Of a stretch of 64,000 nucleotides of DNA, positions 1,848-61,917 are shown one piece after another. The notes beneath the pieces are model-generated. The model made no database searches. It saw only the letters and a program-made list of their open reading frames with translations, and had not been told where the DNA came from. Positions within the stretch are counted from its first letter, which is position 1; each line of letters begins with the position of its first letter. The DNA lies in contig JBJXGI010000099.1 of NCBI GenBank assembly GCA_046153645.1, positions 14,781 through 78,780 of the forward strand, written 5' to 3'. The position numbers and the translations under genes are program-made. This stretch comes from Elusimicrobiota bacterium. GTDB taxonomy: Bacteria; Elusimicrobiota; Elusimicrobia; F11.

Positions 1848-1850
1848 ATT

Positions 1851-5305: not shown

Positions 5306-6423
5306 AACGAACCCTTGATTTTCTTATCGGATCCCCACTCATTTTTCTTTTTTCTTTTTTTAAAAAATCTCCGATTAAAAAAAATAATTTTAAAAAAATT
5401 CTTATTATCAAATTGGCTGCGGTAGGAGACGCTATTTTATTGGCTCCCGCAATCAAGACCTTAAAAGAAAAATTCCCCGAAGCTGAAATTGATTGGCTTA
5501 TTTCTCCATCGAATTCTCAAATTGTCAAAGCCATAACACCAGTCCATCATGTAATAGTGGTAAAAGTGAATCATTTGCTTAATATTTTAAAAACTATTTT
5601 TGATTTAAGATCAAAAGGTTATGATTTGGTCATCGATTTTGAGCAATGGTCAAGAGGCTCAGTTCTCATGGCCTATTTTTCTGGCATCCCTGAGAGAATT
5701 GGTTTTAATACGCAGGGACAACATCGATCCGGTTTGTTTACAGATTCAATTCCTAAAAGGTTTGATCAACATGAAATTGAAAACTTTATGGACTTGGTAC
5801 GGATTAAAGCCCCTCATGCTTTAACACCATCGTTGGAATTACACGAAGATTTATTTTCTAAAAATTTATTAGAAGAAGTCGTTCTAGATTTAAAGTCAAA
5901 TAAAAAAAATAAGCTCAATATACTCATACACCCGGGATGTGGTTTTGATGGCACTCCCAGAGAATGGCCGCTTGAAAACTACGCGGTTTTTATCAATTGG
6001 GTACATAAAAATAAATCAGCACAGTTTTTTCTTACTTCAGGGCCTGAAGAAATCATAAAAGTAAAAAAGTTGATGAAATTGATCCAGTATAAAGCGGTTG
6101 ATTTGGGCGGGAAATTGGGATGGCTTCAAATGCTAAGTTTGGTTAAAAAAATGGATTTGGTTATTTCTGGTAATACTGGTGTGATGCATTTGGCTGCTGC
6201 TTTGCAGATTCCTCAAATTGCCTTACATGGACCAACCAATCCTGTCATTTGGGGACCAAAAAATTCGCGTTCTAAAACTTTGGTATCTTCTTGTCCGGCT
6301 TGTCCTTGTCTTAAACTTGGTTTTGAGTATCATGCGCTTGATCAGTCTTGTATGAAACAACTCAGTATTGAGGATGTTAAAGCTTCATTTGCTGAGCTTA
6401 TCGACAATAACGTATCGATTTGA
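5302..6423 (+). CDS. Family 9 glycosyltransferase (ADP-heptose:LPS heptosyltransferase-like)
   Basis: The N-terminal KILIIKLAAVGDAILLAPAIKTLKEKFPEAEIDWL is the RfaC/RfaF signature. TTG start overlapping the upstream stop. Confidence 0.7.
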   Translation: MKRTLDFLIGSPLIFLFSFFKKSPIKKNNFKKILIIKLAAVGDAILLAPAIKTLKEKFPEAEIDWLISPSNSQIVKAITPVHHVIVVKVNHLLNILKTIFDLRSKGYDLVIDFEQWSRGSVLMAYFSGIPERIGFNTQGQHRSGLFTDSIPKRFDQHEIENFMDLVRIKAPHALTPSLELHEDLFSKNLLEEVVLDLKSNKKNKLNILIHPGCGFDGTPREWPLENYAVFINWVHKNKSAQFFLTSGPEEIIKVKKLMKLIQYKAVDLGGKLGWLQMLSLVKKMDLVISGNTGVMHLAAALQIPQIALHGPTNPVIWGPKNSRSKTLVSSCPACPCLKLGFEYHALDQSCMKQLSIEDVKASFAELIDNNVSI

Positions 6424-6437
6424 TATGAAGAGGGTCT

Positions 6438-7856
6438 ATGGCCATTAGTAGTGATCAATATAATTTAGGCATAATGACTTGGAAAGACTCTCGAAAATTA
6501 GTCATTCGTTTTTTTCTTTTGATGAGTGATTTGTTGGCGATTTCCATTGCTTATTTATCGGCCTATTGTATCCGCTTTTATTACTCACCATTTATCGGTA
6601 ATTTCCCTATTACGAAAGGTTTCCCACCTGTTCTAGAGTATTTGCAAGCGGCCCCCATCATTTTATTTATGTGGGGAGTGTCGATTTTTTTTCAAGGCGC
6701 CTATACTCGTCTAAACTTGGCCGCCATTGACGAAGGTATTCGAACATTTAAAGCTGTCTTTTTTGGAACACTTTTATCTATGTCCGCGATGTTTTTATAT
6801 AGGGACGCTTCATTTTCGAGAATTGTTTTTGTTTTGGGTGGTATTCTTAGTTTTTTTACGATTTATTTGTTTAGGCAGCTTTTAAAAATAACTTACATCT
6901 CTTATATTAAAGCCCAGAGAAAACCCCAACGCATTCTTGTTGTTGGAGAAGGCAGGCTGTTAAACTCAATTAAAAAGATTTTAGATCGACATGGAGATAA
7001 AGCAGTTTTAAAAATGGTTGATTTTAATATTGAGAAAATTCTTCACACAATTATTCGATCTAAAATTGCGGAAGTTTTATTGGCACATCCTGATGTTGAA
7101 CATAAAGAAATTGTTAAGTTGTCTAACTTTTGTGAAAGAAAAAAAGTTATTTTTCGACTTATTCCTGATATTTTAGAAATCAGGATGGGCGAAATTATTA
7201 TTGATGAATCATTAGGCTTGCCGACATTTCAAATTAAGTCGATTTCTTTGGCGGGTTCAGCTTTTTTAACCAAACGAATAATGGATGTTTTTATAGCAAC
7301 ATTATTAATAGGAGCTTGTATTGTCCCATTTCTAATGATTGCTTTTCTTATAAAAATTACTTCGATTGGCCCCATTTTTTATACGCATAAGAGAGTCGGT
7401 TTTAGAGAAAGATTGTTTGATTTTCTGAAATTCCGGACGATGGTTTCAAATGCCGATGATTTACTTACGGACTTAAAAGAAAAGAGTGATCGTAAAGGTC
7501 CTGTTTTTAAAATGAAAAATGATCCTCGAATTACTTGGATTGGAACTTTTTTAAGAAGAACCAGTTTAGATGAAATTCCACAACTGTTAAATGTTTTGAG
7601 AGGGGAAATGAGTTTAGTGGGGCCTCGCCCTCAAGTCGTGTGGGAAGCGCAAAATTATGATGACTGGGCAAAAAAAAGACTCAATGTGTTGCCAGGAATT
7701 ACAGGTCTTTGGCAGGTTAGTGGTCGAGCCGAACTGACGTATGAAGAAATGATTGAGCTTGATGTTTATTATCTCGAACACTGGTCGCCTGGTTTGGACA
7801 TTAAAGTTTTATTGCGCACTATTCCAGCCGTTTTATTTGCAAAAGGAGCTTATTAA
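6438..7856 (+). CDS. Undecaprenyl-phosphate sugar phosphotransferase (WbaP/bacterial sugar transferase family)
   Basis: N-terminal TM helices, then the C-terminal catalytic block KRVGFRERLFDFLKFRTM…RPQVVWE…PGITGLWQVSGR. Confidence 0.8.
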   Translation: MAISSDQYNLGIMTWKDSRKLVIRFFLLMSDLLAISIAYLSAYCIRFYYSPFIGNFPITKGFPPVLEYLQAAPIILFMWGVSIFFQGAYTRLNLAAIDEGIRTFKAVFFGTLLSMSAMFLYRDASFSRIVFVLGGILSFFTIYLFRQLLKITYISYIKAQRKPQRILVVGEGRLLNSIKKILDRHGDKAVLKMVDFNIEKILHTIIRSKIAEVLLAHPDVEHKEIVKLSNFCERKKVIFRLIPDILEIRMGEIIIDESLGLPTFQIKSISLAGSAFLTKRIMDVFIATLLIGACIVPFLMIAFLIKITSIGPIFYTHKRVGFRERLFDFLKFRTMVSNADDLLTDLKEKSDRKGPVFKMKNDPRITWIGTFLRRTSLDEIPQLLNVLRGEMSLVGPRPQVVWEAQNYDDWAKKRLNVLPGITGLWQVSGRAELTYEEMIELDVYYLEHWSPGLDIKVLLRTIPAVLFAKGAY

Positions 7857-8785
7857 TGAGGATTTTGGTTACCGGAGGAGCCGGGTTTATTGGCTCTCAT
7901 GTTGTTGATGCCTATATAAATGCCGGTCATAAAGTCATTATTGTCGATGATGGTTCAACCGGAAATTTTAAACAGATAAATAAAAAGGCCATTTTTTATA
8001 ATTGCGATATTAGAAATAAAGCTAAGTTGGCTCAGCTTTTTAGTAAATATAAATTTAATGTCGTAAATCATCACGCCGCACAAATTGATGTTCGAAAGTC
8101 AGTTCTGAACCCTCTCCATGATGCTGACATTAATATTATTGGTTTGTTAAATTTGTTAGATGTGGCCGTTAAAAATAAAGTTGAAAAATTTATTTTTTCT
8201 TCATCTGGTGGAACCATTTATGGTGAAACTCCAAAACCCGCGTTAGAAACCTCTCCAGAAATACCATTGTCTCCTTATGGTGTTGCAAAGTTGTCGAGCG
8301 AAAAATACATTCAGGCTTTTTCAGCGCTCTTTAATATCAAATACACTATTTTTAGATATTCCAATGTTTATGGTCCTAGGCAAAACCCACATGGTGAAGC
8401 TGGAGTTGTGGCTATTTTCTCTAGCAGATTATTAAAAAACGAACCTCTTAAAATTTTCGGTTCTGGAAATCAGACCAGAGATTTTGTTTATGTTGGCGAT
8501 GTTGCTCGGGCGAATCTTCTAGCGCTGAGAAAAGGAAATAATCAAATCATTAATATTGGAATTGGGAAGAAGGTGAGTGTAAATGAGCTGTTTAATTTAA
8601 TGGCAGAGATTATTGGCTATCAACAAAAACCAGTTCATGCGAAAGCTCGGTTAGGCGAATTGCAAGATAGCGTTTTAAATTATAATAAGGCTAAGCGTGT
8701 GTTGGGGTGGAAACCTAAATATCAGATCAAAGAAGGGTTAGCTGAAACAATTCTTTTTTTTGAAAACATGCCGATAAAAAAATGA
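7856..8785 (+). CDS. NAD-dependent epimerase/dehydratase (UDP-sugar 4-epimerase-like, SDR extended family)
   Basis: Rossmann motif MRILVTGGAGFIGSHV and the catalytic region YSNVYGPRQ. Confidence 0.8.
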   Translation: MRILVTGGAGFIGSHVVDAYINAGHKVIIVDDGSTGNFKQINKKAIFYNCDIRNKAKLAQLFSKYKFNVVNHHAAQIDVRKSVLNPLHDADINIIGLLNLLDVAVKNKVEKFIFSSSGGTIYGETPKPALETSPEIPLSPYGVAKLSSEKYIQAFSALFNIKYTIFRYSNVYGPRQNPHGEAGVVAIFSSRLLKNEPLKIFGSGNQTRDFVYVGDVARANLLALRKGNNQIINIGIGKKVSVNELFNLMAEIIGYQQKPVHAKARLGELQDSVLNYNKAKRVLGWKPKYQIKEGLAETILFFENMPIKK

Positions 8786-9708
8786 ATGCCATTATTTTGT
8801 TGGGTGGTCTTGGAACTCGCTTACGTCCGTTAACTATCTTAAAGCCCAAAGCGTTGCTTCCTATATTAAATAAGCCTTTTTTATCTTATCAGTTTGATTT
8901 GTTGCGCCGATCAGGAATTAAAAATGTTGTTTTAGCGGCTGGGATGGCTAATTTGCCTTTTAAAAAAGAATTTCTTGCTCTTGGGGGAAGAGGACTTAAC
9001 GTTAAAATTTGTTTTGAACCATTTCCTTTAGGGACGGGGGGGGCCATTAAATTTGGATATGAGCAATTATTGAAATATTTTCCGCCATCGGCAGTCCCCG
9101 TTTTCGTAATGAATGGAGATGTTTTTATTAATTTAGATATCAAATCTTTTTTTAAAAAACATTTATTAAATAAAGCGGTCGTCTCAATTGCATTAACAAA
9201 AGTAAAGGATCCATCTCAATTTGGTGTCATCATTTTAAACAGAAACTCGCGAATTATGAAATTTGTCGAAAAACCCAAAAAATATGTGGGAGATAAAATT
9301 AATGCTGGCGCCTATATGATGTCATCAGAATGGCTAAATGGAATTCGTTCCAATACGGTTTTATCTGTCGAGAAAGATTTGTTCCCATTAACACTTAAAG
9401 AAGAAAAACCGATGTTCGGTTTTCAAATCAATGGGTATTGGAATGATATTGGAACCCACACCACATATTTAAAAGCGCATCGTGATTTGTCAAATGGTAA
9501 AAGTTTTATGGGGAAAGGTTCTCATGTTCATTCTACGGCAACTCTGGAAAACTCTGTCTTGTTCGAAAATGTGTTAATTGGAAAAGAGACGGTTATTCGA
9601 AACTCGATCATTGCTTCTGGAGTCGAAATTAGTAATAACTGTTGTATCGAGAACGCGGTGTTGGCTGAAAAAACAAAAATTATGTCTTACTCTAAAGTGA
9701 TTGGATAA
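8782..9708 (+). CDS. Sugar-1-phosphate nucleotidyltransferase (mannose-1-P guanylyltransferase-like) with C-terminal left-handed beta-helix
   Basis: ILLGGLGTRLRPLT is the NTP-transferase G-x-G-T-R motif. Hexapeptide repeats at the C-terminus. Confidence 0.7.
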   Translation: MNAIILLGGLGTRLRPLTILKPKALLPILNKPFLSYQFDLLRRSGIKNVVLAAGMANLPFKKEFLALGGRGLNVKICFEPFPLGTGGAIKFGYEQLLKYFPPSAVPVFVMNGDVFINLDIKSFFKKHLLNKAVVSIALTKVKDPSQFGVIILNRNSRIMKFVEKPKKYVGDKINAGAYMMSSEWLNGIRSNTVLSVEKDLFPLTLKEEKPMFGFQINGYWNDIGTHTTYLKAHRDLSNGKSFMGKGSHVHSTATLENSVLFENVLIGKETVIRNSIIASGVEISNNCCIENAVLAEKTKIMSYSKVIG

Positions 9709-9710
9709 TT

Positions 9711-11162
9711 ATGAATGCAAAAATTAAGTTTGGAACTGACGGATGGCGTGATGTTATCGCCGATGGGTTTACTTTTGGGAATTTAAAGAATGTTGTTCAG
9801 GCCACCTGCCAATATTTAAAAAAGACCTCAAAATCAAAATATGTTTTGATCGGTTACGATAATCGGTTTTATTCCGATCAATTCGCGAGAATCGCGGCCC
9901 AAGTTTTTTTAGCGAACTCATTTAAAGTTGAGTTATCGGATGCTGCTGTCAGTTCTCCTGTCATGTCATGGAATACAAAAAATAAAAAGGCAGCCTTGGG
10001 TGTTATGATCACCGCTAGTCATAACCCGGCGATTTTTAATGGATATAAACTAAAAGGGTCTCATGGTGGATCTGTCGATGAAAAAACAACGCTCCAAATT
10101 GAGGACTTATTAGATTTGCCTTTAAACTGGGATGAATCCATCGTTCCGAAAACCACCGATTTTGTTGAAAGTTATATAGGCCAATTAAAAAAATGGGTTG
10201 ACCCCAAAAAACTTAAAGGTTTAAAAGGAAAAATTGTTTTTGATTCTATGCATGGTCCTGGTGGAGAAATATTTAAGGAATGCGTTGGAAGTTCTTTTGA
10301 TGTTTCTTACCTTCATAATAATAGAGACCCTCTTTTTGGTGGAATAAATCCTGAACCCATTGAGGAAAACCTTCTTCCTTTAAAAGCTGAAATGAAAACA
10401 AAATCAGCTGTTATTGGAATCGCTGTAGATGGAGACGCTGATCGTATTGGTGTTATTGATGAAAAAGGCCGCTATTTACCGCCACATACTGTTATGCCAC
10501 TTTTACTCTGTCATTTGGTTAAGAATAAAAAAATGAAAGGGAAAGTTATCCAAACTGTTTCGATGGGATATATTAATCAGCGTATTTGTCAAAAATATGG
10601 TCTGGCCTTTGAAGAAGTACCGGTTGGATTTAAAAACATCGTTCAAAAAATGTTAATTGAAAAAGTGTTATGGGGAGGAGAAGAATCTGGTGGATACGGC
10701 GTTGGCCTTTGGACACCGGAGCGCGATGGTTTAATGTGCGCGCTTCTACTGATTGAGATGCTGGTTATGGAGAAAAAACCTTTATCTCAAATCGTTGATG
10801 AAATGAGTTCTCAATTTGGATCTTCCCATTTTAAAAGAGTTGATTTTCATTTAAAAGAGTCAGTGAATAAAGCGGATTGGACAGTTTTTATTCAATCTCA
10901 ATTAAAGCCTGAAATTTCTGGGCAAAAAATAAAATCTGTGAATAGTTCTGATGGAATAAAAATTATAACGGAAAATGATTCTTGGGTTCTTATGCGCCCG
11001 AGTGGAACTGAACCGCTCATTCGAACTTATTCTGAATCGGATTCAATGGCCACCGTTGATGCTTTATTGAATGAGGCCAAACGACTTGTTTCAATTCAAT
11101 ATCCTCCCAAGAAAATAGAATCAAAATCGGGAACAAGAAAAAGTCGAAAGCCGAAAGAATAA
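9711..11162 (+). CDS. Phosphomannomutase/phosphoglucomutase (alpha-D-phosphohexomutase)
   Basis: Active-site TASHNP motif and the metal-binding region AVDGDADR. Confidence 0.85.
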   Translation: MNAKIKFGTDGWRDVIADGFTFGNLKNVVQATCQYLKKTSKSKYVLIGYDNRFYSDQFARIAAQVFLANSFKVELSDAAVSSPVMSWNTKNKKAALGVMITASHNPAIFNGYKLKGSHGGSVDEKTTLQIEDLLDLPLNWDESIVPKTTDFVESYIGQLKKWVDPKKLKGLKGKIVFDSMHGPGGEIFKECVGSSFDVSYLHNNRDPLFGGINPEPIEENLLPLKAEMKTKSAVIGIAVDGDADRIGVIDEKGRYLPPHTVMPLLLCHLVKNKKMKGKVIQTVSMGYINQRICQKYGLAFEEVPVGFKNIVQKMLIEKVLWGGEESGGYGVGLWTPERDGLMCALLLIEMLVMEKKPLSQIVDEMSSQFGSSHFKRVDFHLKESVNKADWTVFIQSQLKPEISGQKIKSVNSSDGIKIITENDSWVLMRPSGTEPLIRTYSESDSMATVDALLNEAKRLVSIQYPPKKIESKSGTRKSRKPKE

Positions 11163-11274
11163 ACACTTCTGCTTTAATTTTAGTTTTAATTTTGTTATCT
11201 TTTAGACATCTTTCCGCTGGTATTTTTCCAATACATAGATAATAAGGATCGAAAATGACCTTAAGGAGGTTCAT

Positions 11275-13720
<2,446 letters not shown>

Positions 13721-13807
13721 AAATAATAAATATAAGTTGAATTATCGATCCAAATCCTATAAATAGAGGTGTTGTTATTTTTATATTATTTATAGGAGGG
13801 GTCTTCG

Positions 13808-14746
13808 ATGAAAAGTTTCTTCAAAATTTCAGTAGCTACCCAAGCTATTCTTTTGACGGGCTTTATGATTTTTTCCGGATGCAAAAACGGAAATTTAGCC
13901 GGTTTTCTCAATGATAGTGGTTCTGGTGGAACCGCCGCCACATTATCTGATGCGAATTTAGCGTTAGCAGAAGGAAATTACTCTCGATCTCTTGAACTGT
14001 ATAATTCCATTTTAGTTCATGACCCGAATAACTCCGACGCTCTATATGGCGCTGCGGCAGCAGAGTTGGGATCAAGTGGGCTTGATTTTGGTCAGTTGGT
14101 TTCCAATTTGGTCACGAATTCTGCACTCCTCGGCTCTTCAGTTAAAAATATGGGTGACTTTATCAGTCAAGGAAACCAACACCCCTCTTCTTCAATTAAT
14201 TGTGCTGGACTAAATAGTATTCTTCTCGGTATAAACTGCGAAGCTTTAAATGCAGTTATTGACCGAGTTATTTGTCGCTTACAAAAGATTGCTTCCGGTG
14301 GAGCCACTGGAACAATTACTTCAAATGATATTCCTACCTTGGTTAATTTTGGTGTCACTTGCCTTATTAGAGCCATTCTCCGCCCATTAAGAGCCGGATT
14401 GTTAGACATCAGAAATAATAATGGTGATTTTGCAATTGTTTATTCCGTGGATATGACCACAGCTTGTAATCAACAACCAACAGTTATTACTGGAATGGTA
14501 AGCGATATTGCCGGCGCTTATTCACTGTTTAATAAAGTTGTTAACTTATTAAACCTTTCTCAGAATCAAGTTATTCGACAATTGCGTGATGACATTGATA
14601 CTGTTGGAACCAAGATGTTGACTACCGGTGGGCCCAATGCCATGCCAGCGGCCTGTTTAAATTTACTACAAACCAATCTTGGAATTAACGTCAGTAATTT
14701 CAAAACCCGTTTGGAGGCATTTGATCCTCCTGCTTCTTCGTGTTAA
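13808..14746 (+). CDS. Hypothetical lipoprotein
   Basis: Signal peptide ending in a FSGC lipobox. AGGAGGGG RBS. No recognisable catalytic motif, and the N-terminal region is TPR-like. Confidence 0.5.
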   Translation: MKSFFKISVATQAILLTGFMIFSGCKNGNLAGFLNDSGSGGTAATLSDANLALAEGNYSRSLELYNSILVHDPNNSDALYGAAAAELGSSGLDFGQLVSNLVTNSALLGSSVKNMGDFISQGNQHPSSSINCAGLNSILLGINCEALNAVIDRVICRLQKIASGGATGTITSNDIPTLVNFGVTCLIRAILRPLRAGLLDIRNNNGDFAIVYSVDMTTACNQQPTVITGMVSDIAGAYSLFNKVVNLLNLSQNQVIRQLRDDIDTVGTKMLTTGGPNAMPAACLNLLQTNLGINVSNFKTRLEAFDPPASSC

Positions 14747-14758
14747 GGAGAAATATAT

Positions 14759-16097
14759 CATGAATATAAAAAAATATTTGTCTGGTTTATTGTCTTTCGG
14801 ATTACTTTTTTCATCTTCCCTCTATGCTGAAGAATTGCCGGTCTTTATTCAGTTTGTTCGGCCTCTGGGGATGGGGGGAGCGTTCACAGCCGTGGCTGAT
14901 GATCATAATGTGTTTACCTATAATCCTGCTGGAATGGTTCAGCGGACAGGGGCTCAAACAACAATTCTTGAATTGGCGGTGGGCGCCTCTCAAGATTTTA
15001 AAGATGCAACAGACTTTGTCAAAGATAATGAAGATGATTTAACGAACTTCGAGAATCTTTCCTCAGCCAGGCAGTCTCAACTGGTTAATGAAATTTCGAG
15101 AACCATCTCTAAATTAAATCCAAGATTATACGCTGCTTCCGACATTGCATCATTTGTTTCAGGTCCAAAGTTTTTTGGAATACCCATTCATGGTGGATTG
15201 GGTGCTTTTGGATCTGTTGATGCCTCATTTAAATTGGAATCGGGATTAATTCCTAGTATTTCTTATCAAATCAACAATGATCTTTTATTCCCACTTTCTA
15301 TCGCTAAAAGATGGGAGGCTCCTTGGATTATTCCCGGAAAAATGGGAGTAGGGCTCACAGGCAAGATAATAAGGAGAAATCAAGTTTCTCAAAATAGATT
15401 GAGTGTTCTCCAATTAGATGATTTAGAGACACCGCCAGTCCAAAGTGGGGTTGGTTTTGGAAGCGATTTAGGATTTTTATTCCAACCAAATGACCGGTTC
15501 AATATCGGGCTTATGGTTCAGGATTTCCTAGGAACAAAAATTAAGTACGATTCTCTGGCAGCTGAGAAAGGATTTGCGGCTCAACCAGAGAGAGACACTG
15601 TTATTCGTCCTCGTACAAATTTAGGATTTGCGGTTGTTCCTAAAAAATTATTTTGGTTACTTCCTACCAGCGATCGATGGACATTGGCCTTCGATGTGCG
15701 AGATATTCTTACTGATAACGAACACGTGATGTTTGAGAGAGGGTTAAATAAACCTTTAGGAAAGAATTTTTGGACACATATGCATATGGGAGCGGAATTT
15801 AGATATTGGTTCTTGCGATTTCGAGGAGGAGCCAGTCAAGGTTATCCCACAGCAGGTTTGGGTTTAGATATTCCCATCTTGAAAATTGATTATGCCTTTT
15901 ACTCCAGGGAGTTGGGTGAGTTGGCAGGAGATATTCGAGAAGAAAACCATATTATTTCCCTTGCGCTTCGATTTGGGTCAGGGGCTACGGAGTCAAGAGA
16001 ACGAATTAAAAATGCCCAGGGTAAAGGGAATGTGGTTCCTACCACTGGAGAAGACGTTTCTCCTCAACTAGATCAAGTAATCGAATCTCCAAAATAG
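14759..16097 (+). CDS. Outer-membrane beta-barrel protein, FadL/TodX/PorV-like
   Basis: Signal peptide MNIKKYLSGLLSFGLLFSSSLYA. The segment VRPLGMGGAFTAVADDHNVFTYNPAGM resembles the N-terminal hatch region of the FadL family. Start set at ATG 14759, which follows an AAGGAG RBS, rather than the track's 14679. Confidence 0.45.
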
Positions 16098-16098
16098 A

Positions 16099-17181
16099 TT
16101 AAGCTGTTTTTCTCATACGAAGCCATAAGTACAGAGCAACGGAAAAGAAAACAATATTGCCTAACCAGGCCCCTGCCCAAGGTGGAATAACCCTTTGGGC
16201 AAGGGCTTTTCCAAATTGAATGAACCCGAGATAAAAAAGGGTTAGTGCTAACCCGGCTGCAATACCAATTGCTCTATTTCCTTTTCCAGACATCGCCAAC
16301 GGTATTCCCAAAAAAGTAACAATAAAACAAGCAAACGGAAATGCCGTTTTCATAAGTAGTTCTACTTCTAATTTTCTGACCGGTACACCCAATGCGGATA
16401 ATCGTTTAATATGACTCTTTAATTCATGCGAATTCATTTGTTCTGGTTGAGGTTCTTGAATGACGAAATTAATTGGTTTCTCATTAAAAGGAAAACTTTT
16501 TTCTATGAAGTTTTCATTTGAAATAATTTTTAGTCCTTCTGCATCAAATTTTCTTACCGCGCCTTTTTCAAATTTCCACCCAGCATCCGTTTTTTTCGCG
16601 CTTTGAGCATCAACTTGAAAATCTAATTTTTTGTTTTCATAGCAGTCAACGACAACTCGAATCATTTCTCCTGTTTCTTGATTTAAAATTTTAGTCGACC
16701 AAATCCTCCCATCATTGCCAGCTACAAATAAATCTTTAAATATGGTTTGTTTCCCTTCACCGAGACGACGTATTTCATTTTGATAAACCATGGTGGCGTG
16801 TCGGGTTGCGGGTGGAATAATCGTCTCATTGGCAATAACGCCTAAAATGGAAATGAAAAATCCCGCAAATAAGATGCCGGATAAGAATTTCTCTGGCGCA
16901 ATTCCGCCAGCCAGACCTGCTATATACTCTTTGGTGCGAGAAAGATTTCCTACAACAAAGAGTGTCGCTAATAAACAAGCGACGGGAAGTATTTGAAGTG
17001 CCTGGAAAGGAAGTGAAGTTAACAAGTATCCTAAAACGTGTTTTAGACTTACGTGATCTGCTATGAATCGATCAAGTCGATCAAAAATTTGAGAGACAAA
17101 AATAAGAACGCATAAGGCCGAAAACGAAGCGATAAATGGTCTGATAAATTTACTCAAAATGTATCGATTAAGAATGTTCAT
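16099..17181 (-). CDS. lptG: LPS export ABC permease LptG (YjgP/YjgQ family)
   Basis: A 3 + 3 TM architecture with a large periplasmic beta-jellyroll insert. Paired with an overlapping paralogue upstream. Confidence 0.75.
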   Translation of the reverse strand: MNILNRYILSKFIRPFIASFSALCVLIFVSQIFDRLDRFIADHVSLKHVLGYLLTSLPFQALQILPVACLLATLFVVGNLSRTKEYIAGLAGGIAPEKFLSGILFAGFFISILGVIANETIIPPATRHATMVYQNEIRRLGEGKQTIFKDLFVAGNDGRIWSTKILNQETGEMIRVVVDCYENKKLDFQVDAQSAKKTDAGWKFEKGAVRKFDAEGLKIISNENFIEKSFPFNEKPINFVIQEPQPEQMNSHELKSHIKRLSALGVPVRKLEVELLMKTAFPFACFIVTFLGIPLAMSGKGNRAIGIAAGLALTLFYLGFIQFGKALAQRVIPPWAGAWLGNIVFFSVALYLWLRMRKTA

Positions 17182-18263
17182 TTTTTAAATAACCTGAAAG
17201 ACAAAAACCCACCAATAATAAGACATGTAATGTTAGCAATCCAAACAGACAATATGGCCGGAAGTCTTTCTTTTTCCGCCATGGTAAGCCCTAATATGAG
17301 AAGCAGATAATAAGTGAAAATAATAACAACAGAAATTCCGAAACTGAAAGATTTTCCACCCCTTTTTAAAACAGTGGCAATAGGAACCCCAATAAGCACC
17401 AAACAAAAAGGAGCAAACGCAATGGCCAATCTTAATTGTTGTTCGGCTTCTATGGGACCTGTTGGAAGTCCTTTTGATTTCAAATCTTTTTTTAGTTTTC
17501 TTAGTTCTTTATTCAATAAACTTCTAAATCTAGTATTTTTACTTGTTTCTTCAGCGTTAAGCGGGATCGATAAATCATATTTCTTAAATGTAATATGCAT
17601 AAGCCTAGCGGGCATGTCAGCGTCATATCTTTGCCATTGGCCATTATTGAGTTCTAGTCGGAATGTTTTTCCATCGGTTTCTATTTTCCCGGATCGCGCG
17701 TAAATCCGTTCAGCCGGAGCGCCAGCGCCGCTTGTTTGATACACAAAAACGTCCTCTAATTTATTAATTGTTTTGTCTACCCGCTCGGCATAAAGTTTGA
17801 TGTTTTTAATATTAAAGAATCGTTTTGCTTCGATGTTAATAAGAGGGTCAGCGCTAATAATTTTTTCATAAATGAGTCTAAATCCCTGATTTGAGCGGGG
17901 AGCCAAATATGAATTAAACGGAATCATAATAAAACTAAGGAACAGCGCAAAAAAAAGAGGAAGCCAGAGTGCTTTAAACAATGAAATCCCTGCTGCACGC
18001 ACTGCATTTAACTCGTTTTCTTCCGATAGTCTTCCAAAGGTAACAAGGCATGCCAATAAAAGAGCCATGGGAAATGTCAGTGGCAAAATTGTAGGAATGA
18101 ACATTAAAAATAGCTTTCCAACAATGAGCGGGTTTACCCCTTTATTAAAAAGGAGGTCAACGATGTCAAAAAGTTTGTCTAACATAAGCACAAACATGAA
18201 AAGAACGGACCCAAAAAAGAAAGATGGGATAAATTGTCGGAAGAAATAAACGGACAAAATCAT
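17178..18263 (-). CDS. lptF: LPS export ABC permease LptF (YjgP/YjgQ family)
   Basis: Same architecture as lptG, with a 4-nt overlap between the two. Confidence 0.75.
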   Translation of the reverse strand: MILSVYFFRQFIPSFFFGSVLFMFVLMLDKLFDIVDLLFNKGVNPLIVGKLFLMFIPTILPLTFPMALLLACLVTFGRLSEENELNAVRAAGISLFKALWLPLFFALFLSFIMIPFNSYLAPRSNQGFRLIYEKIISADPLINIEAKRFFNIKNIKLYAERVDKTINKLEDVFVYQTSGAGAPAERIYARSGKIETDGKTFRLELNNGQWQRYDADMPARLMHITFKKYDLSIPLNAEETSKNTRFRSLLNKELRKLKKDLKSKGLPTGPIEAEQQLRLAIAFAPFCLVLIGVPIATVLKRGGKSFSFGISVVIIFTYYLLLILGLTMAEKERLPAILSVWIANITCLIIGGFLSFRLFKK

Positions 18264-18373
18264 GTTTAGATTCTATAAAAACAAGAGTCAACTTCCGTTT
18301 TTAATTATTGTTAAAACAGCTTGAAAACATAAGCATTTGATGATACCCTGGCCAAAGGAAATGGTGGCAAATT

Positions 18374-21300
18374 TTGCTCGGTAACAAAAATATATATCGA
18401 ACTCTTTTTTTCTTTGGGGGATTGCTTTTGGGTCCCTCAATAAGTGTTTTCTCACAAAGCGCTAACGATTCTTCTCGTTTTCGAATCGGCGAATCTTTAG
18501 AACCTGAATTAGAACCAGAAAAAAACCTTCCTGATGTTCCTTTTGAATTTGATTTGAAGAAGTGGAATACTATGCGTCGTTCAATTGAAGGTGAGTCGGC
18601 AATTGAAAAAAAAGCTCAAAGTGTTCAAACTTCTTCAAAAACAGTAACTTCTGAACCACCCAAACCTGCTCCTGGCTTAATTAATGTTGAATTACCCTAT
18701 GAATCGTCTTTATCTGTGACGGGAAGAAAAGTCATTAAACTTGATATTACCAATACTCAAATTACCAAAGAACGCGCCAGTGAACTGGGTGGAAAACAGA
18801 ATGCTCAAACCTTTTCCATGGAACAAGAACTCCAGGCTCGAATTCAGGGTACTGTGGCTCGCAAAACAACAATTAATGTTAATTTCGATGACACCAAAGA
18901 AAATGTGCGAGATTTTTCAGTCGTCTATAAAGGTGATCCCGATGAAGTTGTTCAAGAAGCCGCTTTCGGTGATATTGTTTTGTCTCTGCCCTCTACTCAA
19001 TTTGTTAATTACAATAAACAATTGTTTGGATTAAGGACGGCGCTAAAATACAAACAATTTGGACTCATGGCCATCGGATCAAGAACGAAGGGGACAACAG
19101 AAACAAAACGGTTTACTGGTGCTACGACTCGTCAACAAGTATTTGTAAATGACACCGCCTATATTCGTCGGAAATTTTATGACCTTACTTTTTCCACTTC
19201 ACCAGCCATGCTTTCTGGTCCCCTCAGTGGAAAAACCATATTGCCAATTAATGATGCTGCCGTAGAAGTTATTTATATTGAAGATACGACAGGGCTTCTT
19301 CCTTTTCCTCAGGCTCAGAATTATGACATAGCCACTCCAACTGCTCCCGCGACAACAATTAATATCAGGATGCGTCAGTTATCGAGAGGGGTGGATTATA
19401 GTATCGATCGAATTCGTGGAATCGTTACCTTTACCAATACCATACCTGAAGATTCACGCGTTGCTATTGATTTTACATTGGCCAGTGGAGAACGACTGAG
19501 TTCTTTGGTTGCCGGTGGTGTTGGGGTTCTCATTAAAGATAAAAATCCTGAAACAGCAGGAGTGAGTCAAGAAATTAAGCGTTTTTATTTCGTTGGCGCT
19601 AGAAATATTAATCGTGATAATGGCTTGGGAAATTTTATTTTTAAAGTTTTAGATAAAAACCGAGACACTGAAATCGGTAATACTTTAGTTCCTATTCAAC
19701 GTTATCCTGACACTATTGAGATGAAATTTGAGACCGGAATCTTCGAACTTGAAAGAGAACTTTCTTTTAGCGATTTATATCTTTCTAATATCAATACAGG
19801 CAGTCCATTATTTGCGGTATTTTCAGTTGAATATCAAGCTATTCTTAGAACCTATACCTTAAGGCCCAACATCGTCTTGCAATCTGAATCAGTGAGTGTT
19901 AATGGTCGGAAGTTGGCCCGAGATTTAGATTATTTTATTGATTATGATATTGGGCTTATCACTTTTTTTAATGAAGATCTTATTCGAGAATCAACTGAAA
20001 TTGAAGTGACCTATGAATTTGCGCCGTTTGGTGGCGTTTTGGGGGAAACTTTGGTAGGCGCCAGAGGCATGTGGGATGTTGCTTCTCGTTCGAGACTTCC
20101 TGGCGTGGGATTAACAAAATGGTCCGCCGGTTCTACTGTTCTCTATAATTTCGCCACAAAGCCAACCTCGCCTCCCGATGTTCGATCTTCAGCAGCAAGT
20201 TTGTTGGTGACTGAAGTTGATAGCACCATTGAAGGCTTTAAAATCGGCAAAATTCCTTTTGTTTCAAAGCTTTCCATTGAAGCGGCACGGTCATCACAAG
20301 ATCCTAATCTTTTTGGCCGAGCCCTTATTGATTCCATGGAGGGCGTTAAACAAGAGGATTCCTCTCCCTTGTTGAGAGATTCTTGGCTGGTCGCTTCTAA
20401 CCCACTTTTTGGAACGCATAATCTTGTTACTGATTTTAGAGGAAGAGACATTGCTCTGAGTCATCTGCGATGGGATGAAGGAGATACTTTAACCTCGGAT
20501 ACTAATGATGGTGGAACAACTCAAAAAGCTCTAACCATTGGATATAGTTTAAACACCCAAAACGGTACCACGCCTGAGCAAGTTTCAATGGTTAATATCA
20601 TTTCTCTTTCTGGACGAGACTTTTCAAAAAAATCCACTCTCGAAGTAGAGGTTGAAGGGGCGGGCACTGAAGGTGCGGGTGTTGATCTTATTTTTGATTA
20701 CGGTAGTTTCAACGAAGATGCTGACTCCGATGGGGTTTTAGATACTGAAGATCGAATTCCATTTGATGGAACCTTAAACTTAGGTGAAGACAACGGCTGG
20801 TTATTTAACGGACCAGGAAATGATTTATCTATTACTTCGTCGGCAGATAACACATCGATCGGAATTGGAGCGGGAAATGCCCGTCTTGACGCGGAAGACT
20901 TAAATGGGGATCGAGTTTTAGGAACAACGGATTTTCCAGCTACTTTTTCACCTTTATTTAAACTTTCAAACGGTTTACAAGATTCGCAGGGAAACACCGT
21001 TAGCGATTTAAGTTTTACTGGGCGGAAACTTTTTCAAATTCCTATTAATTTAAATTCATTATCTGCTGAAGAAAAAGCACGGTTAACAGCCGTTCGTCAG
21101 GTTCGATTAACGATTAGAAATAATAATGGAGCTGCTGTTTCAAAAAGTGGAAGTATTGTTTTGGTTCGTCTTTCAATGGTGGGAAATTCATATGAGCCTG
21201 CCACATTGTCAGATACCGTTTTAAGTACGATGACCGTTCGTGGGATTAACACGAAAGATGATGCTGGAGTTTACAGCACAATCATCGGAAATGGAGATTA

Positions 21301-23779
21301 TGCAGATCTTTACAAAGATAGTGTTCCGAAAAGTGATGCCAAAGAACAAGCTTTGGCATTGGTTTATACTCTTCAACCAGGTTCTACTGGGACGACCAGA
21401 AACTTATATAGTGCGGCAAGAGATTTTTCTAAGCATGAAGAATTTGTATTTTTCTTGAGCAAAAAAGACAGTTGTGTTACGGGTTGCGGCAAATTTATTT
21501 TCCAGGTTGGTTCAGAAACAGAGTTTCAACAAGCGACAGTTGATTTAGATAATTCCAATATCCCTGCTGCCCCTATTTGGACGGCGATAAAAATCAAACA
21601 ATCAGATTTAAATAATGATGGAACACCAGATACGTGGCAGACCATAACCCCGGGTGTGACAATAACACGTGTCGGAAGCGTTCCAAACTTAAGCCAAATT
21701 TCTCAGATTAAGATGGGCGTACGAAATGATTCTGGAGCGGTTATCACAAACCAGGTTTGGGTAAATGAAATTCATTTAAAAAATCCCAAAGAAAAATTAG
21801 GTCACGCTAAACGAGCCACCTTCAATACTGTTTGGGAAAATTGGATGGATCTCGGTGGGAGTTACCAAGATGTTGATCGAAATTGGCAAACGCCCACAAC
21901 AGCTATTACCAACCAAGACAATACCAGAAGTGACGCTTACGCCAATTTTAATCGTCTTGCATTTTTACCGATGAGTTTTAAGACCACGAGAGATAGAACC
22001 CTAACCCCGTCTGCTTTTCGAGCAAATCAAAACGCACTTGTTTCATTTTTAGAAGAAGGAAGAGTGGAGCGAATTGCGAATGTGTCCAGTGCGAAACTCA
22101 TCATTCCAAAATTGCCTGTTTTGGATTTTAATTATTCCAACGATGAGACTGAAAATACACTGTCTCAACGCAAAGAATTAAATGATACCTTGAGTATTGG
22201 AGCCAGTTACGCATTTCCAAAAATGCTTGATGTTCTTCCGGGGAATTTTTTAACTTTTAGAATTCTTCCTACGAATATGACCTTTACGCACATTAATAAA
22301 ACATCAAAGGTGCGATTTCCTGATGTCAATAAATTGGTTGAATTTAGTATTTCAACCACACCCTTTAATTCGACAAACCTGACCCAAACAAGCTCAGAAA
22401 ATGAGGCGCGTATGAATTTTCGCCCCTGGGAGGGTTTTTCTTTTAACCCCACTTATCGATTAAGGGTTGAAAAAGAGAAAAGAGATTTTCGGGATGATGA
22501 AATTCTTTCGATTGCCGCTTTATCTAATTTGGATAACAGGGAAACGCCTCGATCGATTGTTCAGAATATCTCAGCATCGGGGAATTTAAAACTATTAAAG
22601 TGGTTGGATCCTCGTTATAACTATTCATTTTCAGGAACTGAAACCAATGGTCTTCCCACGTTGACCAATACCACTGCTTATTCTTTAAAAACAATTACTC
22701 GAAATAGTCAGGGAGAAATTTCTGGAAATATTCAAGCTTCTCAGGTGTTCACGAGAAGTCTTTTATTAAGGAGCATGAATCTCAATTCAAGTTACAAGGT
22801 TGAAAACGGGGATAGTTACCAAGATGTGCCCGAGGGGTTTAAATGGAGGAGTCAATATTGGGTTGGTAATCCCTTAGCCATTAGCAGTGGAACTGAGGGG
22901 CGGCGAGTTGAGCTAACTGATCGGCGTACTTTTAGAACAGGGATGTCTTGGCAACCATTTGGTGCTTATCAAATTACCAACACGAAAATGAAACTGTTTA
23001 ATACGATGTCTTTGACAGGAAATTATCAAGCCTCAACAGAAGACAGCGAAACAACGGGGTCTGCTAAAAGAGTAACTTCTCTTACCTGGCCCGATTTAAT
23101 TTTAACGATTAATGACATAGAAGATTTATTTAGTATTAAACGTGTCTTGGATAATTCTCGTTTGGTTGTAAAAACAAATAAGAGAGTCACAGAAACAAGA
23201 GCTGTCACCAAAAGCAGATCCAATAATTTGGGATCAGATTATCAATTTCAGTTCTTGAAAAAGTGGGATGTGTCGACGGGATTTAATTTGGCTACTTCAC
23301 GTGATGATAATTTGGTTTCAAATCTTCTAGCTTCTAAGTCAAATACCCTCTCTTATTTCTTACAAACTCGAATTCCTTGGAAAATTTGGGCTTTTACTCC
23401 TCGTTTTGAGAGATCTAAAACCGATACCAAGGATTCAATTCGTACAACGAACGATTTGCTTTCTGAGGTGTATCAGGTCCAAATTTATGGAGATATTAAC
23501 CGACCTGTGGGGTTGCGCATAGGGAGAAGGGAATTGGCTTTGGCCAATCGAGTTATTATTAACTCAACTGTTAAATGGGATAAAAAACGCTCAAGTGTGA
23601 ATCCTGGGTCAAATTATTTAGACACTTATAGCGGTACTCTCTCTGCTGACTACACCATTTCTCAAAATTTCCGAATTGCTTTTGGGGGGAATTTCTCACA
23701 AGAAGTTCATCACCCCGATTTTAAAAAACTTGACCGTCTTATCTTTGGTCTTAATTCTGTTCTCACGATTCAATTCTAA
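18374..23779 (+). CDS. Giant (1801 aa) secreted surface/outer-membrane protein with Asp-rich Ca-binding-like repeats; possible very large beta-barrel
   Basis: TTG start, because the nearby upstream ATG at 18361 is out of frame. Sec signal peptide LFFFGGLLLGPSISVFS. Thrombospondin-type-3-like repeats (DADSDGVLDTEDRIPFDG, DAEDLNGDRVLGTTDF). Amphipathic beta-strand-rich C-terminal half ending …LNSVLTIQF, whose C-terminal Phe is typical of BAM substrates. Confidence 0.55.
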   Translation: MLGNKNIYRTLFFFGGLLLGPSISVFSQSANDSSRFRIGESLEPELEPEKNLPDVPFEFDLKKWNTMRRSIEGESAIEKKAQSVQTSSKTVTSEPPKPAPGLINVELPYESSLSVTGRKVIKLDITNTQITKERASELGGKQNAQTFSMEQELQARIQGTVARKTTINVNFDDTKENVRDFSVVYKGDPDEVVQEAAFGDIVLSLPSTQFVNYNKQLFGLRTALKYKQFGLMAIGSRTKGTTETKRFTGATTRQQVFVNDTAYIRRKFYDLTFSTSPAMLSGPLSGKTILPINDAAVEVIYIEDTTGLLPFPQAQNYDIATPTAPATTINIRMRQLSRGVDYSIDRIRGIVTFTNTIPEDSRVAIDFTLASGERLSSLVAGGVGVLIKDKNPETAGVSQEIKRFYFVGARNINRDNGLGNFIFKVLDKNRDTEIGNTLVPIQRYPDTIEMKFETGIFELERELSFSDLYLSNINTGSPLFAVFSVEYQAILRTYTLRPNIVLQSESVSVNGRKLARDLDYFIDYDIGLITFFNEDLIRESTEIEVTYEFAPFGGVLGETLVGARGMWDVASRSRLPGVGLTKWSAGSTVLYNFATKPTSPPDVRSSAASLLVTEVDSTIEGFKIGKIPFVSKLSIEAARSSQDPNLFGRALIDSMEGVKQEDSSPLLRDSWLVASNPLFGTHNLVTDFRGRDIALSHLRWDEGDTLTSDTNDGGTTQKALTIGYSLNTQNGTTPEQVSMVNIISLSGRDFSKKSTLEVEVEGAGTEGAGVDLIFDYGSFNEDADSDGVLDTEDRIPFDGTLNLGEDNGWLFNGPGNDLSITSSADNTSIGIGAGNARLDAEDLNGDRVLGTTDFPATFSPLFKLSNGLQDSQGNTVSDLSFTGRKLFQIPINLNSLSAEEKARLTAVRQVRLTIRNNNGAAVSKSGSIVLVRLSMVGNSYEPATLSDTVLSTMTVRGINTKDDAGVYSTIIGNGDYADLYKDSVPKSDAKEQALALVYTLQPGSTGTTRNLYSAARDFSKHEEFVFFLSKKDSCVTGCGKFIFQVGSETEFQQATVDLDNSNIPAAPIWTAIKIKQSDLNNDGTPDTWQTITPGVTITRVGSVPNLSQISQIKMGVRNDSGAVITNQVWVNEIHLKNPKEKLGHAKRATFNTVWENWMDLGGSYQDVDRNWQTPTTAITNQDNTRSDAYANFNRLAFLPMSFKTTRDRTLTPSAFRANQNALVSFLEEGRVERIANVSSAKLIIPKLPVLDFNYSNDETENTLSQRKELNDTLSIGASYAFPKMLDVLPGNFLTFRILPTNMTFTHINKTSKVRFPDVNKLVEFSISTTPFNSTNLTQTSSENEARMNFRPWEGFSFNPTYRLRVEKEKRDFRDDEILSIAALSNLDNRETPRSIVQNISASGNLKLLKWLDPRYNYSFSGTETNGLPTLTNTTAYSLKTITRNSQGEISGNIQASQVFTRSLLLRSMNLNSSYKVENGDSYQDVPEGFKWRSQYWVGNPLAISSGTEGRRVELTDRRTFRTGMSWQPFGAYQITNTKMKLFNTMSLTGNYQASTEDSETTGSAKRVTSLTWPDLILTINDIEDLFSIKRVLDNSRLVVKTNKRVTETRAVTKSRSNNLGSDYQFQFLKKWDVSTGFNLATSRDDNLVSNLLASKSNTLSYFLQTRIPWKIWAFTPRFERSKTDTKDSIRTTNDLLSEVYQVQIYGDINRPVGLRIGRRELALANRVIINSTVKWDKKRSSVNPGSNYLDTYSGTLSADYTISQNFRIAFGGNFSQEVHHPDFKKLDRLIFGLNSVLTIQF

Positions 23780-23901
23780 TCGAAAAATATTTTCCAATCC
23801 GCTCTTCTTTTTTTAGAGTTTTAATTGACCTTTCATTTGAGTGAATGATGCCAAAACTTTCCTTTATTTGATTAAATAACACACCCCTTCAGGAGGATTT
23901 T

Positions 23902-24552
23902 ATGAAGGGCGTTTTTTGGTTTTTGTTTAAGCTGTTTTTTCCGGCTTGTTGTCCGGGGTGTAAAAAAGATATGTCGCTCTGTTTTAACGTCCCGGCTTGC
24001 TCATCTTGCGTTGATCAGTTTGAATTCAATCGACATCTTTTCACAACTAAAAATTTAGATTCACTTCATTGTCATTATTTATATAAAGAGCCTCTTCGGT
24101 CATTTATTATTCATTCAAAATATCACGCCAAAGACTATTTATTGCCTTATTTATTAGATCAGGTAACTGTTCTTTTTAGCGGTTTTGATTGCGTTATTTC
24201 AGTTCCCGGTCATCCCATCAAAAATGTTTTGAGAGGGTATAACCCTGCTTCGTTAATTGCTTCTGCTATTTCACGTAAAGCCGGCATTCCATTTAAAGCA
24301 AATTTTATTTCTCGTAAATTATGGAGTAAAAGTCAGAAAAAACTGACTAAAAGTGAAAGGTGGGAAAACTCGCAGGCTTCGTTTTTTATTCATAAATCAA
24401 TACGAAAAAACTGTTTCGGATTGAAAATTTTATTGATTGATGATGTTTGCACAACGAGTTCAACTTTAGAAGTATGTGCAAAAATCCTGAAAAATCAGGG
24501 GGCCAAAGAAGTCCATGGTTGGGCGCTTTGTTATGAAGAATTACAAAAATAG
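23902..24552 (+). CDS. comF: ComF-family phosphoribosyltransferase-domain protein
   Basis: N-terminal double Cys ribbon (CCPGCKK…CSSC) plus a C-terminal PRTase motif ILLIDDVCTTSSTL. Confidence 0.75.
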   Translation: MKGVFWFLFKLFFPACCPGCKKDMSLCFNVPACSSCVDQFEFNRHLFTTKNLDSLHCHYLYKEPLRSFIIHSKYHAKDYLLPYLLDQVTVLFSGFDCVISVPGHPIKNVLRGYNPASLIASAISRKAGIPFKANFISRKLWSKSQKKLTKSERWENSQASFFIHKSIRKNCFGLKILLIDDVCTTSSTLEVCAKILKNQGAKEVHGWALCYEELQK

Positions 24553-61826: not shown

Positions 61827-61917
61827 GCATCTGGCTTGTTTTCAATGAGATATTTGATACACGGGGGGCTTTTTGGTTAGGAAGATAAAGGCCGTCCTGC
61901 AATCAATTCTAAACTCA

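Follow-up and report, generated by a model that had tools for sequence, protein, structure and literature searches.

The 64-kb stretch of Elusimicrobiota DNA analyzed here (64,000 nucleotides of contig JBJXGI010000099.1, called the window below) encodes an 1801-residue protein that is homologous, in sequence and in fold, to SprA/Sov, the outer membrane translocon of the secretion system known as type IX (T9SS). We conclude that this protein is a Sec-exported barrel of the SprA family, inserted by the β-barrel assembly machinery (BAM) and about 25% smaller than SprA. Its gene is conserved throughout the phylum, is syntenic with lptF and lptG of lipopolysaccharide (LPS) export, and in relatives clusters with genes for PorV/PorQ-family carriers and for proteins bearing a T9SS-type C-terminal domain (CTD). 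The reading that we favor, with moderate confidence, is that of a reduced, T9SS-like translocon that genomic position links to LPS export. Loci in the genomes or contigs of relatives are labeled L001 to L088.

The giant protein is a remote homologue of SprA

The giant open reading frame (ORF) is a real gene, because its product equals, at 100% identity, an NCBI protein annotated as a 'hypothetical protein' in an Elusimicrobiota metagenome-assembled genome (MAG), and has more than 200 full-length homologues. An open frame of 1801 codons in DNA of 38% GC is no chance event; GC content across the window is 33-43%. As the sequence-only reading of this stretch had proposed, the N-terminus (MLGNKNIYRTLFFFGGLLLGPSISVFS/QS), judged from the residues themselves, looks like a Sec signal, in which the n-region is basic and the core hydrophobic. 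The terminal phenylalanine that it pointed out is also a property of the family, since the C-terminus (...LTIQF) ends in F1801, which is invariant in 30 of 30 homologues, and L1797, I1799 and Q1800 are near-invariant. The NCBI gene model is 1783 residues long and starts at position 18428, 18 codons downstream of the TTG codon at 18374. With that start most of the signal peptide would be lost, and the start is therefore probably mis-called.

SprA/Sov had been named as one of the few comparators for a barrel of this size, with the suggestion that the corresponding models be run against the protein. The match to TIGR04189 (T9SS outer membrane translocon Sov/SprA) has an E-value of 1.5e-25, but scores 88.7 bits against a cut-off of 200, and Pfam SprA_N (PF14349) is matched at 26 bits, with a cut-off of 27. 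A profile made from an alignment of 30 homologues of the giant protein, A1, matched Flavobacterium johnsoniae SprA (PDB 6h3i_A) with an E-value of 4.5e-31 in four colinear stretches (Table 1). SprA in the PDB was reached by the family profile only, as a single-sequence phmmer search of the giant protein against the PDB found nothing.

The structural evidence leads to the same protein. An AlphaFold2 (AF2) model of residues 602-1801 (1200 residues, built on 70 homologues) has a mean predicted local distance difference test (pLDDT) score of 88.1 and shows about 30 long strands plus a β-sandwich in a SprA-like fold; the β-strand-rich C-terminal part that had been expected is thus seen in the C-terminal two-thirds of the chain. 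When the model was compared with the PDB by Foldseek, the top four matches were the SprA chains 8gl6_A, 8gl8_A, 6h3i_A and 6h3j_A (E-values from 2e-37 to 3e-29, query-normalized TM-scores 0.45-0.49), and the next match was a TonB-dependent receptor at 1.8e-5. LptD (E-value about 1e-4) and TonB-dependent receptors were found at the level of generic barrels only. For the N-terminal 600 residues, homology to the N-terminal strands of SprA is covered by the sequence alignment. Based on the TIGR04189 match, the profile match to the solved structure and the four leading Foldseek matches, we conclude that the protein is truly, if remotely, homologous to SprA/Sov, beyond a mere likeness in barrel size. 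That it is a SprA homologue with a giant barrel is, in our judgment, almost certain.

An acidic cluster and the surface-protein alternative

The sequence-only reading had also described Asp-rich DxDxDG repeats of the thrombospondin-3 type. The Asp/Glu-rich region stood and the repeat array did not. Asp and Glu content peaks at 33% per 40-residue window around residues 775-850, compared with 11.5% protein-wide, in one cluster of the pattern NEDxDxDGxLDTED...DGTLNxGED...GRxDxEDLDGD; strict DxDxDG-like motifs number two in the whole protein, at residues 782 and 1078. The invariant or near-invariant acidic columns are E781, D782, D784, E792, D793, E805, D806, D839 and D842, and the third and last acidic loop aligns with SprA from 1158 (DVEDINRD) onward. 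Residues 751-870 matched no Pfam family, TSP_3 (PF02412) included, even at E-values up to 10. Given this result and a single cluster without tandem copies, thrombospondin-3 repeats were rejected. Calcium binding by the cluster is plausible, as judged from its residues.

A cluster of this kind could also belong to a protein without a role in translocation, such as a passive giant porin, a large surface adhesin or something like an S-layer protein. The middle of the protein holds a CBM11-like, jelly-roll β-sandwich that resembles CBM11 and agarase β-sandwiches in Foldseek, in keeping with the labels that a few homologues carry (PF03425 or 'carbohydrate binding'), and the apparent absence of motor genes (within 10 kb in the loci; no genome-wide search was made) would suit such a protein as well. 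However, fold and sequence favor SprA over any other barrel by 25 to 30 orders of magnitude. The modeled 1200 residues contain no Ig-like or β-helix stalk, which excludes the adhesin-stalk alternative of the earlier reading for that two-thirds of the chain, and the genomic association with PorV/PorQ and CTD-bearing genes described below likewise speaks against a passive surface protein. We regard this explanation as very improbable.

Distribution of the family

A scan of one genome per GTDB species yielded 338 stretches that encode a relative of the giant protein. The best 80 of these were examined, and all 80 are from Elusimicrobiota, among them Endomicrobiales, Elusimicrobiaceae, Elusimicrobium sp. 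and a MAG labeled Endomicrobium trichonymphae. The ORFs were intact in both loci that were checked (L067 and L075). Homologues that carry a name come from Elusimicrobia/Elusimicrobiota or from unclassified 'bacterium' MAGs, are about 1700-1870 residues long and are called 'hypothetical protein', with the exception of one 'carbohydrate binding domain-containing protein'. The gene is near-universal in Elusimicrobiota, a phylum that the NCBI taxonomy places outside the Fibrobacteres-Chlorobi-Bacteroidetes (FCB) group.

An exhaustive phmmer search of 1.84 billion cluster representatives, with the last 1200 residues as query, returned 264 proteins at E-values up to 1e-3 and 93 at E-values up to 1e-30, and therefore the family is small and sharply delimited. 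Canonical SprA was not reached from the single sequence in this search. The tail of relatives of 1900-2300 residues includes a Candidatus Desantisbacteria protein. Furthermore, locus L088 encodes a 1975-residue relative that aligns with profile A1 over 1510 columns (hhalign E-value 1e-122) and whose neighbors cluster with Candidatus Coatesbacteria proteins.

A PorV-like barrel in the window and canonical carriers in relatives

An outer membrane protein (OMP) of the FadL family, the family of the SprA partner PorV, had been placed 2.3 kb upstream of the giant gene. Its assignment to the superfamily stood; its link to PorV itself is weaker than had been implied. The OMP matches Pfam TraF_2 (PF13729) at 31 bits, above the cut-off of 25, and its best NCBIfam match is PorV_fam (NF033709), at 45.5 bits against a cut-off of 90. 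Similarly, 30 of 30 homologues of the OMP match PorV_fam below threshold, with a best E-value of 1.7e-17. Neither a profile of this PorV-like family nor a single-sequence phmmer search with the OMP gave anything significant in the PDB.

The AF2 model of the OMP (pLDDT 88.5, predicted TM-score 0.82) folds into a barrel of the 14-strand FadL type that carries a hatch at the N-terminus. In Foldseek, TodX (9.5e-9), FadL (2.5e-6) and CymD came slightly ahead of PorV (8gl6_F at 2.7e-6, 6h3i_F at 1.7e-5), and chain F of the Bacteroides BAM complex also matched, behind TodX, FadL and CymD; the fold fails to discriminate PorV from FadL, TodX or BamG. The OMP and the canonical PorV/PorQ proteins of Elusimicrobiota have in common the N-terminal motif GMG.A.TAV.DD...YN.AG (BLASTP 3e-5), and the two groups are joined only through local jackhmmer iteration. 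We conclude that the window OMP is a divergent member of the PorV/PorQ-FadL superfamily.

An OMP of the window type lies within 10 kb upstream of the SprA-like gene in 8 of 43 loci, and it is always preceded by a gene for a small lipoprotein (L005, L007, L011, L014, L019, L036, L053, L083). Locus L086, from candidate division FCPU426, carries at 8039-14063 metK-ahcY, a small OMP-like protein, a tetratricopeptide repeat (TPR) lipoprotein and a PorV-like barrel. This barrel carries FlgD_ig and OmpA domains as fusions; next come genes for an MsbA-like ABC transporter and for the LPS core. Conservation of the module of lipoprotein and PorV-like barrel thus extends beyond Elusimicrobiota, and LPS genes are its neighbors.

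PorV/PorQ proteins proper are encoded 0-4 kb from the SprA-like gene in several relatives. The protein in L015 scores 127 bits, above the NCBIfam cut-off, and those in L039, L062 and L066 were assigned by homology to above-cut-off proteins. A further PorV/PorQ protein, of 328 residues, is encoded in L087 (177.6 bits for NF033709, cut-off 90; 33.3 bits for Pfam PorV, cut-off 27).

Candidate cargo with type A sorting domains

In eight distinct species loci (L003/L055, L011, L013, L014, L019, L036, L077 and L083) an M6 metalloprotease gene is found with lptG on one side and the PorV-like gene or ahcY on the other. In the window this slot, filled elsewhere by a gene for a secreted, immune inhibitor A-like protease (for example L003 5967-7724 and L014 5307-7001), is empty and the PorV-like gene abuts lptG. 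The last 90 or so residues of the M6 proteins (...YPNP...IY.L.G..V...WVYEYDWNGKN..G..V..GVYLYR....KTGK....R) match TIGR04183 (Por_Secre_tail; cut-off 23 bits), FlgD_ig and the C-terminal ends of PorU and PorZ coherently, though below threshold. A profile built from the tails matched 1223 proteins at E-values up to 1e-3 in a set of 5.8 billion proteins, many of which carry PF18962 or the name 'T9SS type A sorting domain-containing protein'. Against the PDB the same profile gave marginal matches to the CTDs of RgpB, PorU and PorZ and to SprA-bound substrate CTDs, behind the Ig domains of FlgD.

Tails that reach the curated threshold were found next to PorV/PorQ genes. L087 and the SprA-like locus L070 belong to one assembly; in L087 the gene for a protein whose TIGR04183 tail scores 27.6 bits is followed immediately by the PorV/PorQ gene. 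In L066 a 1462-residue protein with a tail of 24.7 bits adjoins the PorV/PorQ gene, 4 kb from the SprA-like gene. The sequence-only reading had suggested a search for T9SS cargo; candidate cargo of this kind is encoded in related Elusimicrobiota, and the 64 kb of the window itself have none.

Two further loci bring together genes for the proposed translocon, a putative carrier and a candidate substrate. In L015, whose SprA-like protein is 54% identical to that of the window, lptG-lptF are divergent from a PorV/PorQ gene, a gene for a 763-residue NHL-propeller protein with a CTD and the SprA-like gene, and the latter three lie on one strand with short gaps; the Por_Secre_tail of the NHL protein scores 24.1 bits in Pfam, where the cut-off is 27. 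In L039 the SprA-like and PorV/PorQ genes accompany a gene for a 1635-residue propeller protein with a TIGR04183 tail of 22.3 bits.

Genomic association with lipopolysaccharide export genes

The divergent arrangement with lptF-lptG, which had been taken to suggest coupling to outer membrane biogenesis, is kept in relatives. In 44 of the 53 species loci with enough flanking sequence, lptF-lptG lie divergently within 1.5 kb upstream, and comF lies downstream in 46 of 64 loci. Polysaccharide genes like those of the window lie upstream in the distant relatives L001-L003 and L041. In L041, which is without lptFG, O-antigen genes abut the SprA-like gene.

Other Lpt genes occur beside the family as well. 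In L041, from an Elusimicrobia MAG, a divergent LptD-like ORF (2394-4661, + strand) lies 5 kb upstream of the SprA-like gene on the same strand; its product matches the LptD_2 protein of L088 by BLASTP (3e-10) and has only a weak, LptC-like match in Pfam. The L088 contig (JGI Ga0315282_10000001, 1.85 Mb) carries at 7527-15928 an LptD_2 gene and then the SprA-like gene. A gap of 75 bp separates the end of the L088 LptD_2 gene (PF19838, 83.7 bits) from the SprA-like gene that follows on the same strand. The recurrence of different Lpt genes beside the family in separate phyla is notable.

LptD has been stated to be absent from Endomicrobiaceae (PMC11257099); this published absence may reflect insensitivity of annotation. 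The idea that the giant barrel replaces a missing LptD was rejected, since separate LptD-like genes exist in L088 and L041 and the giant protein has no LptD similarity: it has no Pfam or NCBIfam LptD match and no OstA/LptD_N jelly-roll, and phmmer with E. coli LptD found nothing.

An explanation that these neighborhoods invite is that the protein is an LPS or outer membrane biogenesis factor that works with the Lpt pathway, for example a surface-coat platform beside LptD, and that its homology to SprA reflects ancestry only. The conserved divergence from lptFG, the position at the edge of O-antigen/LPS clusters, the LptD_2 gene next to the family member of a different candidate phylum (L088), the LptD-like gene upstream in L041 and the PorV-like/TPR-lipoprotein pair among LPS-core genes in FCPU426 all fit this explanation, and near-universal retention suggests a housekeeping role. 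However, the giant protein has neither the sequence nor the jelly-roll of LptD and a separate LptD-like protein exists, so that it is no LptD replacement, and the clustering with CTD cargo and PorV/PorQ points to protein export. Moreover, the genes metK-ahcY ... comF-gap-pgk-secG form part of a conserved gene order of housekeeping genes. Synteny alone is therefore weak functional evidence, and conserved order alone could explain part of the association. A role confined to LPS or outer membrane biogenesis thus seems unlikely to us.

Weighing the proposed reduced type IX translocon

Several observations weigh against the reading of the protein as a reduced T9SS-like translocon. It misses the curated SprA cut-offs (TIGR04189, PF14349), and about 600 residues present in SprA are missing from it. 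The AF2 model spans residues 602-1801, so that its roughly 30 long strands are a count for two-thirds of the chain, to be set beside the 36 strands of the closed SprA barrel with its cap and lateral opening; barrel closure is presumed. The window OMP is a distant PorV relative only, and no CTD-bearing gene was found in the 64-kb window. The position beside lptFG could be a matter of inherited gene order, with no functional link behind it. No gene for GldK/L/M/N, SprE/PorW or PorU was found within 10 kb in 80 loci, and no genome-wide search was made. Additionally, in Table S3 of the TXSScan paper E. minutum Pei191 and TG1 Rs-D17 have zero entries for all systems, including T9SS. The same paper found T9SS only in Bacteroidetes and noted that clades without known systems may hide new ones, and reviews restrict T9SS to Bacteroidota or to the FCB superphylum. 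Among the papers covered by our literature search, none connects Elusimicrobia with T9SS or SprA.

The missing components could in principle be encoded elsewhere in the genome, in which case the phylum would have a complete canonical T9SS whose GldKLMN, SprE and PorU are too divergent for annotation. SprA itself was missed by curated cut-offs, so other components could be too, and the phylum does have canonical PorV/PorQ proteins and CTDs. A GldK-like domain adjoins the SprA-like gene in L039: the ORF directly upstream (5217-9497, - strand) encodes a Ser/Thr kinase with TPRs and a formylglycine-generating enzyme (FGE)-sulfatase domain, and this domain matches GldK/PorK at 120 bits, with a cut-off of 350. 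The L039 protein is probably not GldK, being a Ser/Thr kinase fusion and no lipoprotein. Against a hidden complete system stand this difference from GldK, the two Elusimicrobia genomes in which TXSScan found no T9SS and the loci searched out to 10 kb; we consider such a system quite improbable.

For the translocon that we favor, the following mechanism is proposed. Substrates with a T9SS type-A-like CTD would be exported by Sec into the periplasm. These substrates, which would include M6 proteases, NHL/propeller proteins and large surface proteins, would then enter the lumen of the barrel and leave it laterally onto a docked FadL-fold carrier of the PorV/PorQ family, as in Bacteroidota; the model for this exit is the SprA-PorV cycle described for Flavobacterium. 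That the giant protein translocates CTD proteins we think rather probable. Secretion is probably co-regulated with, or feeds into, LPS-based surface assembly, because the gene is divergent from lptF-lptG at the edge of LPS/O-antigen clusters. The tie to LPS might, speculatively, consist of co-regulation or of anchoring of cargo to LPS, as for type-A substrates of Bacteroidota.

A stronger version of this proposal is a minimal T9SS-like pathway outside the FCB group, composed of the mini-SprA, PorV/PorQ and type-A CTD cargo, working without GldKLMN and coupled, physically or through regulation, to the Lpt machinery, by way of lptFG in Elusimicrobiota and of LptD_2 in a Coatesbacteria-like genome. 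We put this forward tentatively and consider it doubtful. If it is true, type IX secretion would have begun as LPS-linked assembly of a surface coat, to which Bacteroidota later added the motor and gliding, and a missing outer membrane secretion route would be supplied in a phylum in which no known system has been detected.

Comparison with known systems

The closest known relative is SprA of F. johnsoniae (6H3I, 6H3J, 8GL6). The two proteins are colinear along most of the chain and have the giant-barrel fold in common over the modeled 1200 residues, as well as a Sec signal, a C-terminal β-signal and the aligned acidic loop, and in related genomes the mini-SprA is associated with PorV/PorQ-family OMPs and type-A CTD proteins. 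In contrast, the mini-SprA has 1801 residues where SprA has about 2400, and the losses are distributed across SprA 330-435, 489-697, 778-1157 and its C-terminal third. It also differs in where it is found, namely outside the FCB group in Elusimicrobiota and in Desantisbacteria-like and Coatesbacteria-like genomes, and in its neighborhood, being conserved beside lptFG or an LptD-like gene with no GldKLMN, SprE or PorU seen within 10 kb.

Compared with PorV/PorQ (NF033709, PF19572), the window OMP has the N-terminal GMGGA..A.aDD...yNPAG motif and the FadL-type barrel with hatch. It differs in length (445 residues against about 330-390) and in its constant pairing with a small TPR lipoprotein. 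Other Elusimicrobiota have shorter PorV/PorQ proteins that pass the cut-offs, unlike the window OMP. The candidate cargo resembles proteins with type-A CTDs (TIGR04183/PF18962; related to the FlgD Ig-like PF13860) in tails of the form YPNP...IY.L.G..V...G(V/M)Y...K-x4-[KR], which in related loci are borne by M6 proteases, NHL/β-propeller proteins and the 1462-residue protein, and differs in that most tails are sub-threshold and carry an insert (..WVYEYDWNGKN..) that makes them FlgD-Ig-like. Like LptD/LptE, the mini-SprA is a large barrel that depends on BAM, for which a lateral exit is proposed and whose gene lies beside Lpt genes; it differs in sequence and has no LptD_N jelly-roll.

These comparisons bear on several questions. 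The protein is a candidate component of an outer membrane secretion route for Elusimicrobiota. As a naturally reduced translocon, 25% smaller than SprA, it lends itself to asking which elements of SprA cannot be spared and if a motor is required at all. The origin of the module of translocon, carrier and CTD would be pushed outside the FCB group, and, since the family lies beside lptFG or LptD-like genes in separate phyla, a connection of these translocons with LPS export can be put to the test. Finally, a SprA homologue conserved across Elusimicrobiota has so far gone unannotated, which is a gap in annotation.

Locus layout and other genes of the window

The four genes at the center of the locus lie where the sequence-only reading had placed them, with lptF-lptG divergent from the giant ORF (Table 1). 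The OMP gene was correctly located and its start, given as 14759, was one base off: the ORF spans 14679-16097 on the + strand and its first ATG is at 14760. LptF and LptG pass the Pfam cut-off and narrowly miss the NCBIfam equivalog cut-offs. A scan of 16000-24000 for promoters and terminators found nothing above shuffled expectation, and a simple sigma-70 scan found no consensus promoter in the 110-bp divergent region.

Table 1. Features of the locus in window coordinates, with the stretches aligned between profile A1 and SprA in their own residue numbering.
Feature	Position	Strand	Basis or remark
O-antigen/LPS-core biosynthesis cluster	26..11162	+	Pfam scan
Lipoprotein with a single TPR-like motif	13808..14746	+	Lipobox ...MIFSG/C; weak TPR_19 match
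FadL/PorV-superfamily outer membrane barrel, 445 aa	14760..16097	+	Pfam TraF_2; NCBIfam PorV_fam below cut-off; AF2
LptG, LPS export ABC permease	16099..17181	-	Pfam LptF_LptG (PF03739) 236.4 bits, cut-off 27.9; TIGR04408 172.6 bits, cut-off 240
LptF, LPS export ABC permease	17178..18263	-	Pfam LptF_LptG (PF03739) 274.9 bits, cut-off 27.9; TIGR04407 216 bits, cut-off 230
Divergent intergenic region between lptF and the SprA-like gene, 110 bp	18264..18373	.	
SprA-like giant outer membrane β-barrel protein ("mini-SprA"), 1801 aa, TTG start	18374..23779	+	
Sec-type signal peptide, aa 1-27, cleavage inferred after VFS	18374..18454	+	Read from sequence
Conserved Asp/Glu-rich cluster, aa 775-850, possible Ca-binding loop region, cap/extracellular part	20696..20923	+	
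C-terminal β-signal-like strand, ...NSVLTIQF	23741..23776	+	Invariant Phe; last strand of AF2 model
ComF-family phosphoribosyltransferase	23902..24552	+	TIGR00201 comF, E-value 1.2e-25
Colinear stretch 1	profile 135-300		SprA 151-329
Colinear stretch 2	profile 333-371		SprA 436-488
Colinear stretch 3	profile 497-577		SprA 698-777
Colinear stretch 4	profile 806-1367		SprA 1158-1785

The ComF-family gene downstream of the giant ORF, which gap and pgk follow in the window, is probably functionally outside the system. The O-antigen/LPS-core cluster encodes a WaaL/Wzy_C-like ligase, a flippase, GT2 and GT4 glycosyltransferases, a GT9 heptosyltransferase, a WbaP-like transferase, an epimerase, an NTP-transferase and a phosphomannomutase.

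Farther along the window, the ORF at 45697-50598 (+ strand) encodes a 1633-residue multi-pass membrane protein with large soluble domains; with this topology, no Pfam or NCBIfam match and no CTD, it was rejected as an OMP or cargo protein. A BBP2/OmpL-like porin (PF07642, 218.8 bits) is encoded at 40272-41465 on the - strand, and at 60750-62724, also on the - strand, a gene for an M23 peptidase adjoins one for an FHA-domain protein weakly similar to the cytoplasmic domain of YscD. The Tol-Pal genes at 54886-57512 (+ strand) encode, in this order, a Pal-like OmpA lipoprotein, a CpoB/YbgF-like TPR protein and TolB, an unusual order by comparison with E. coli, in which it is tolB-pal-cpoB.

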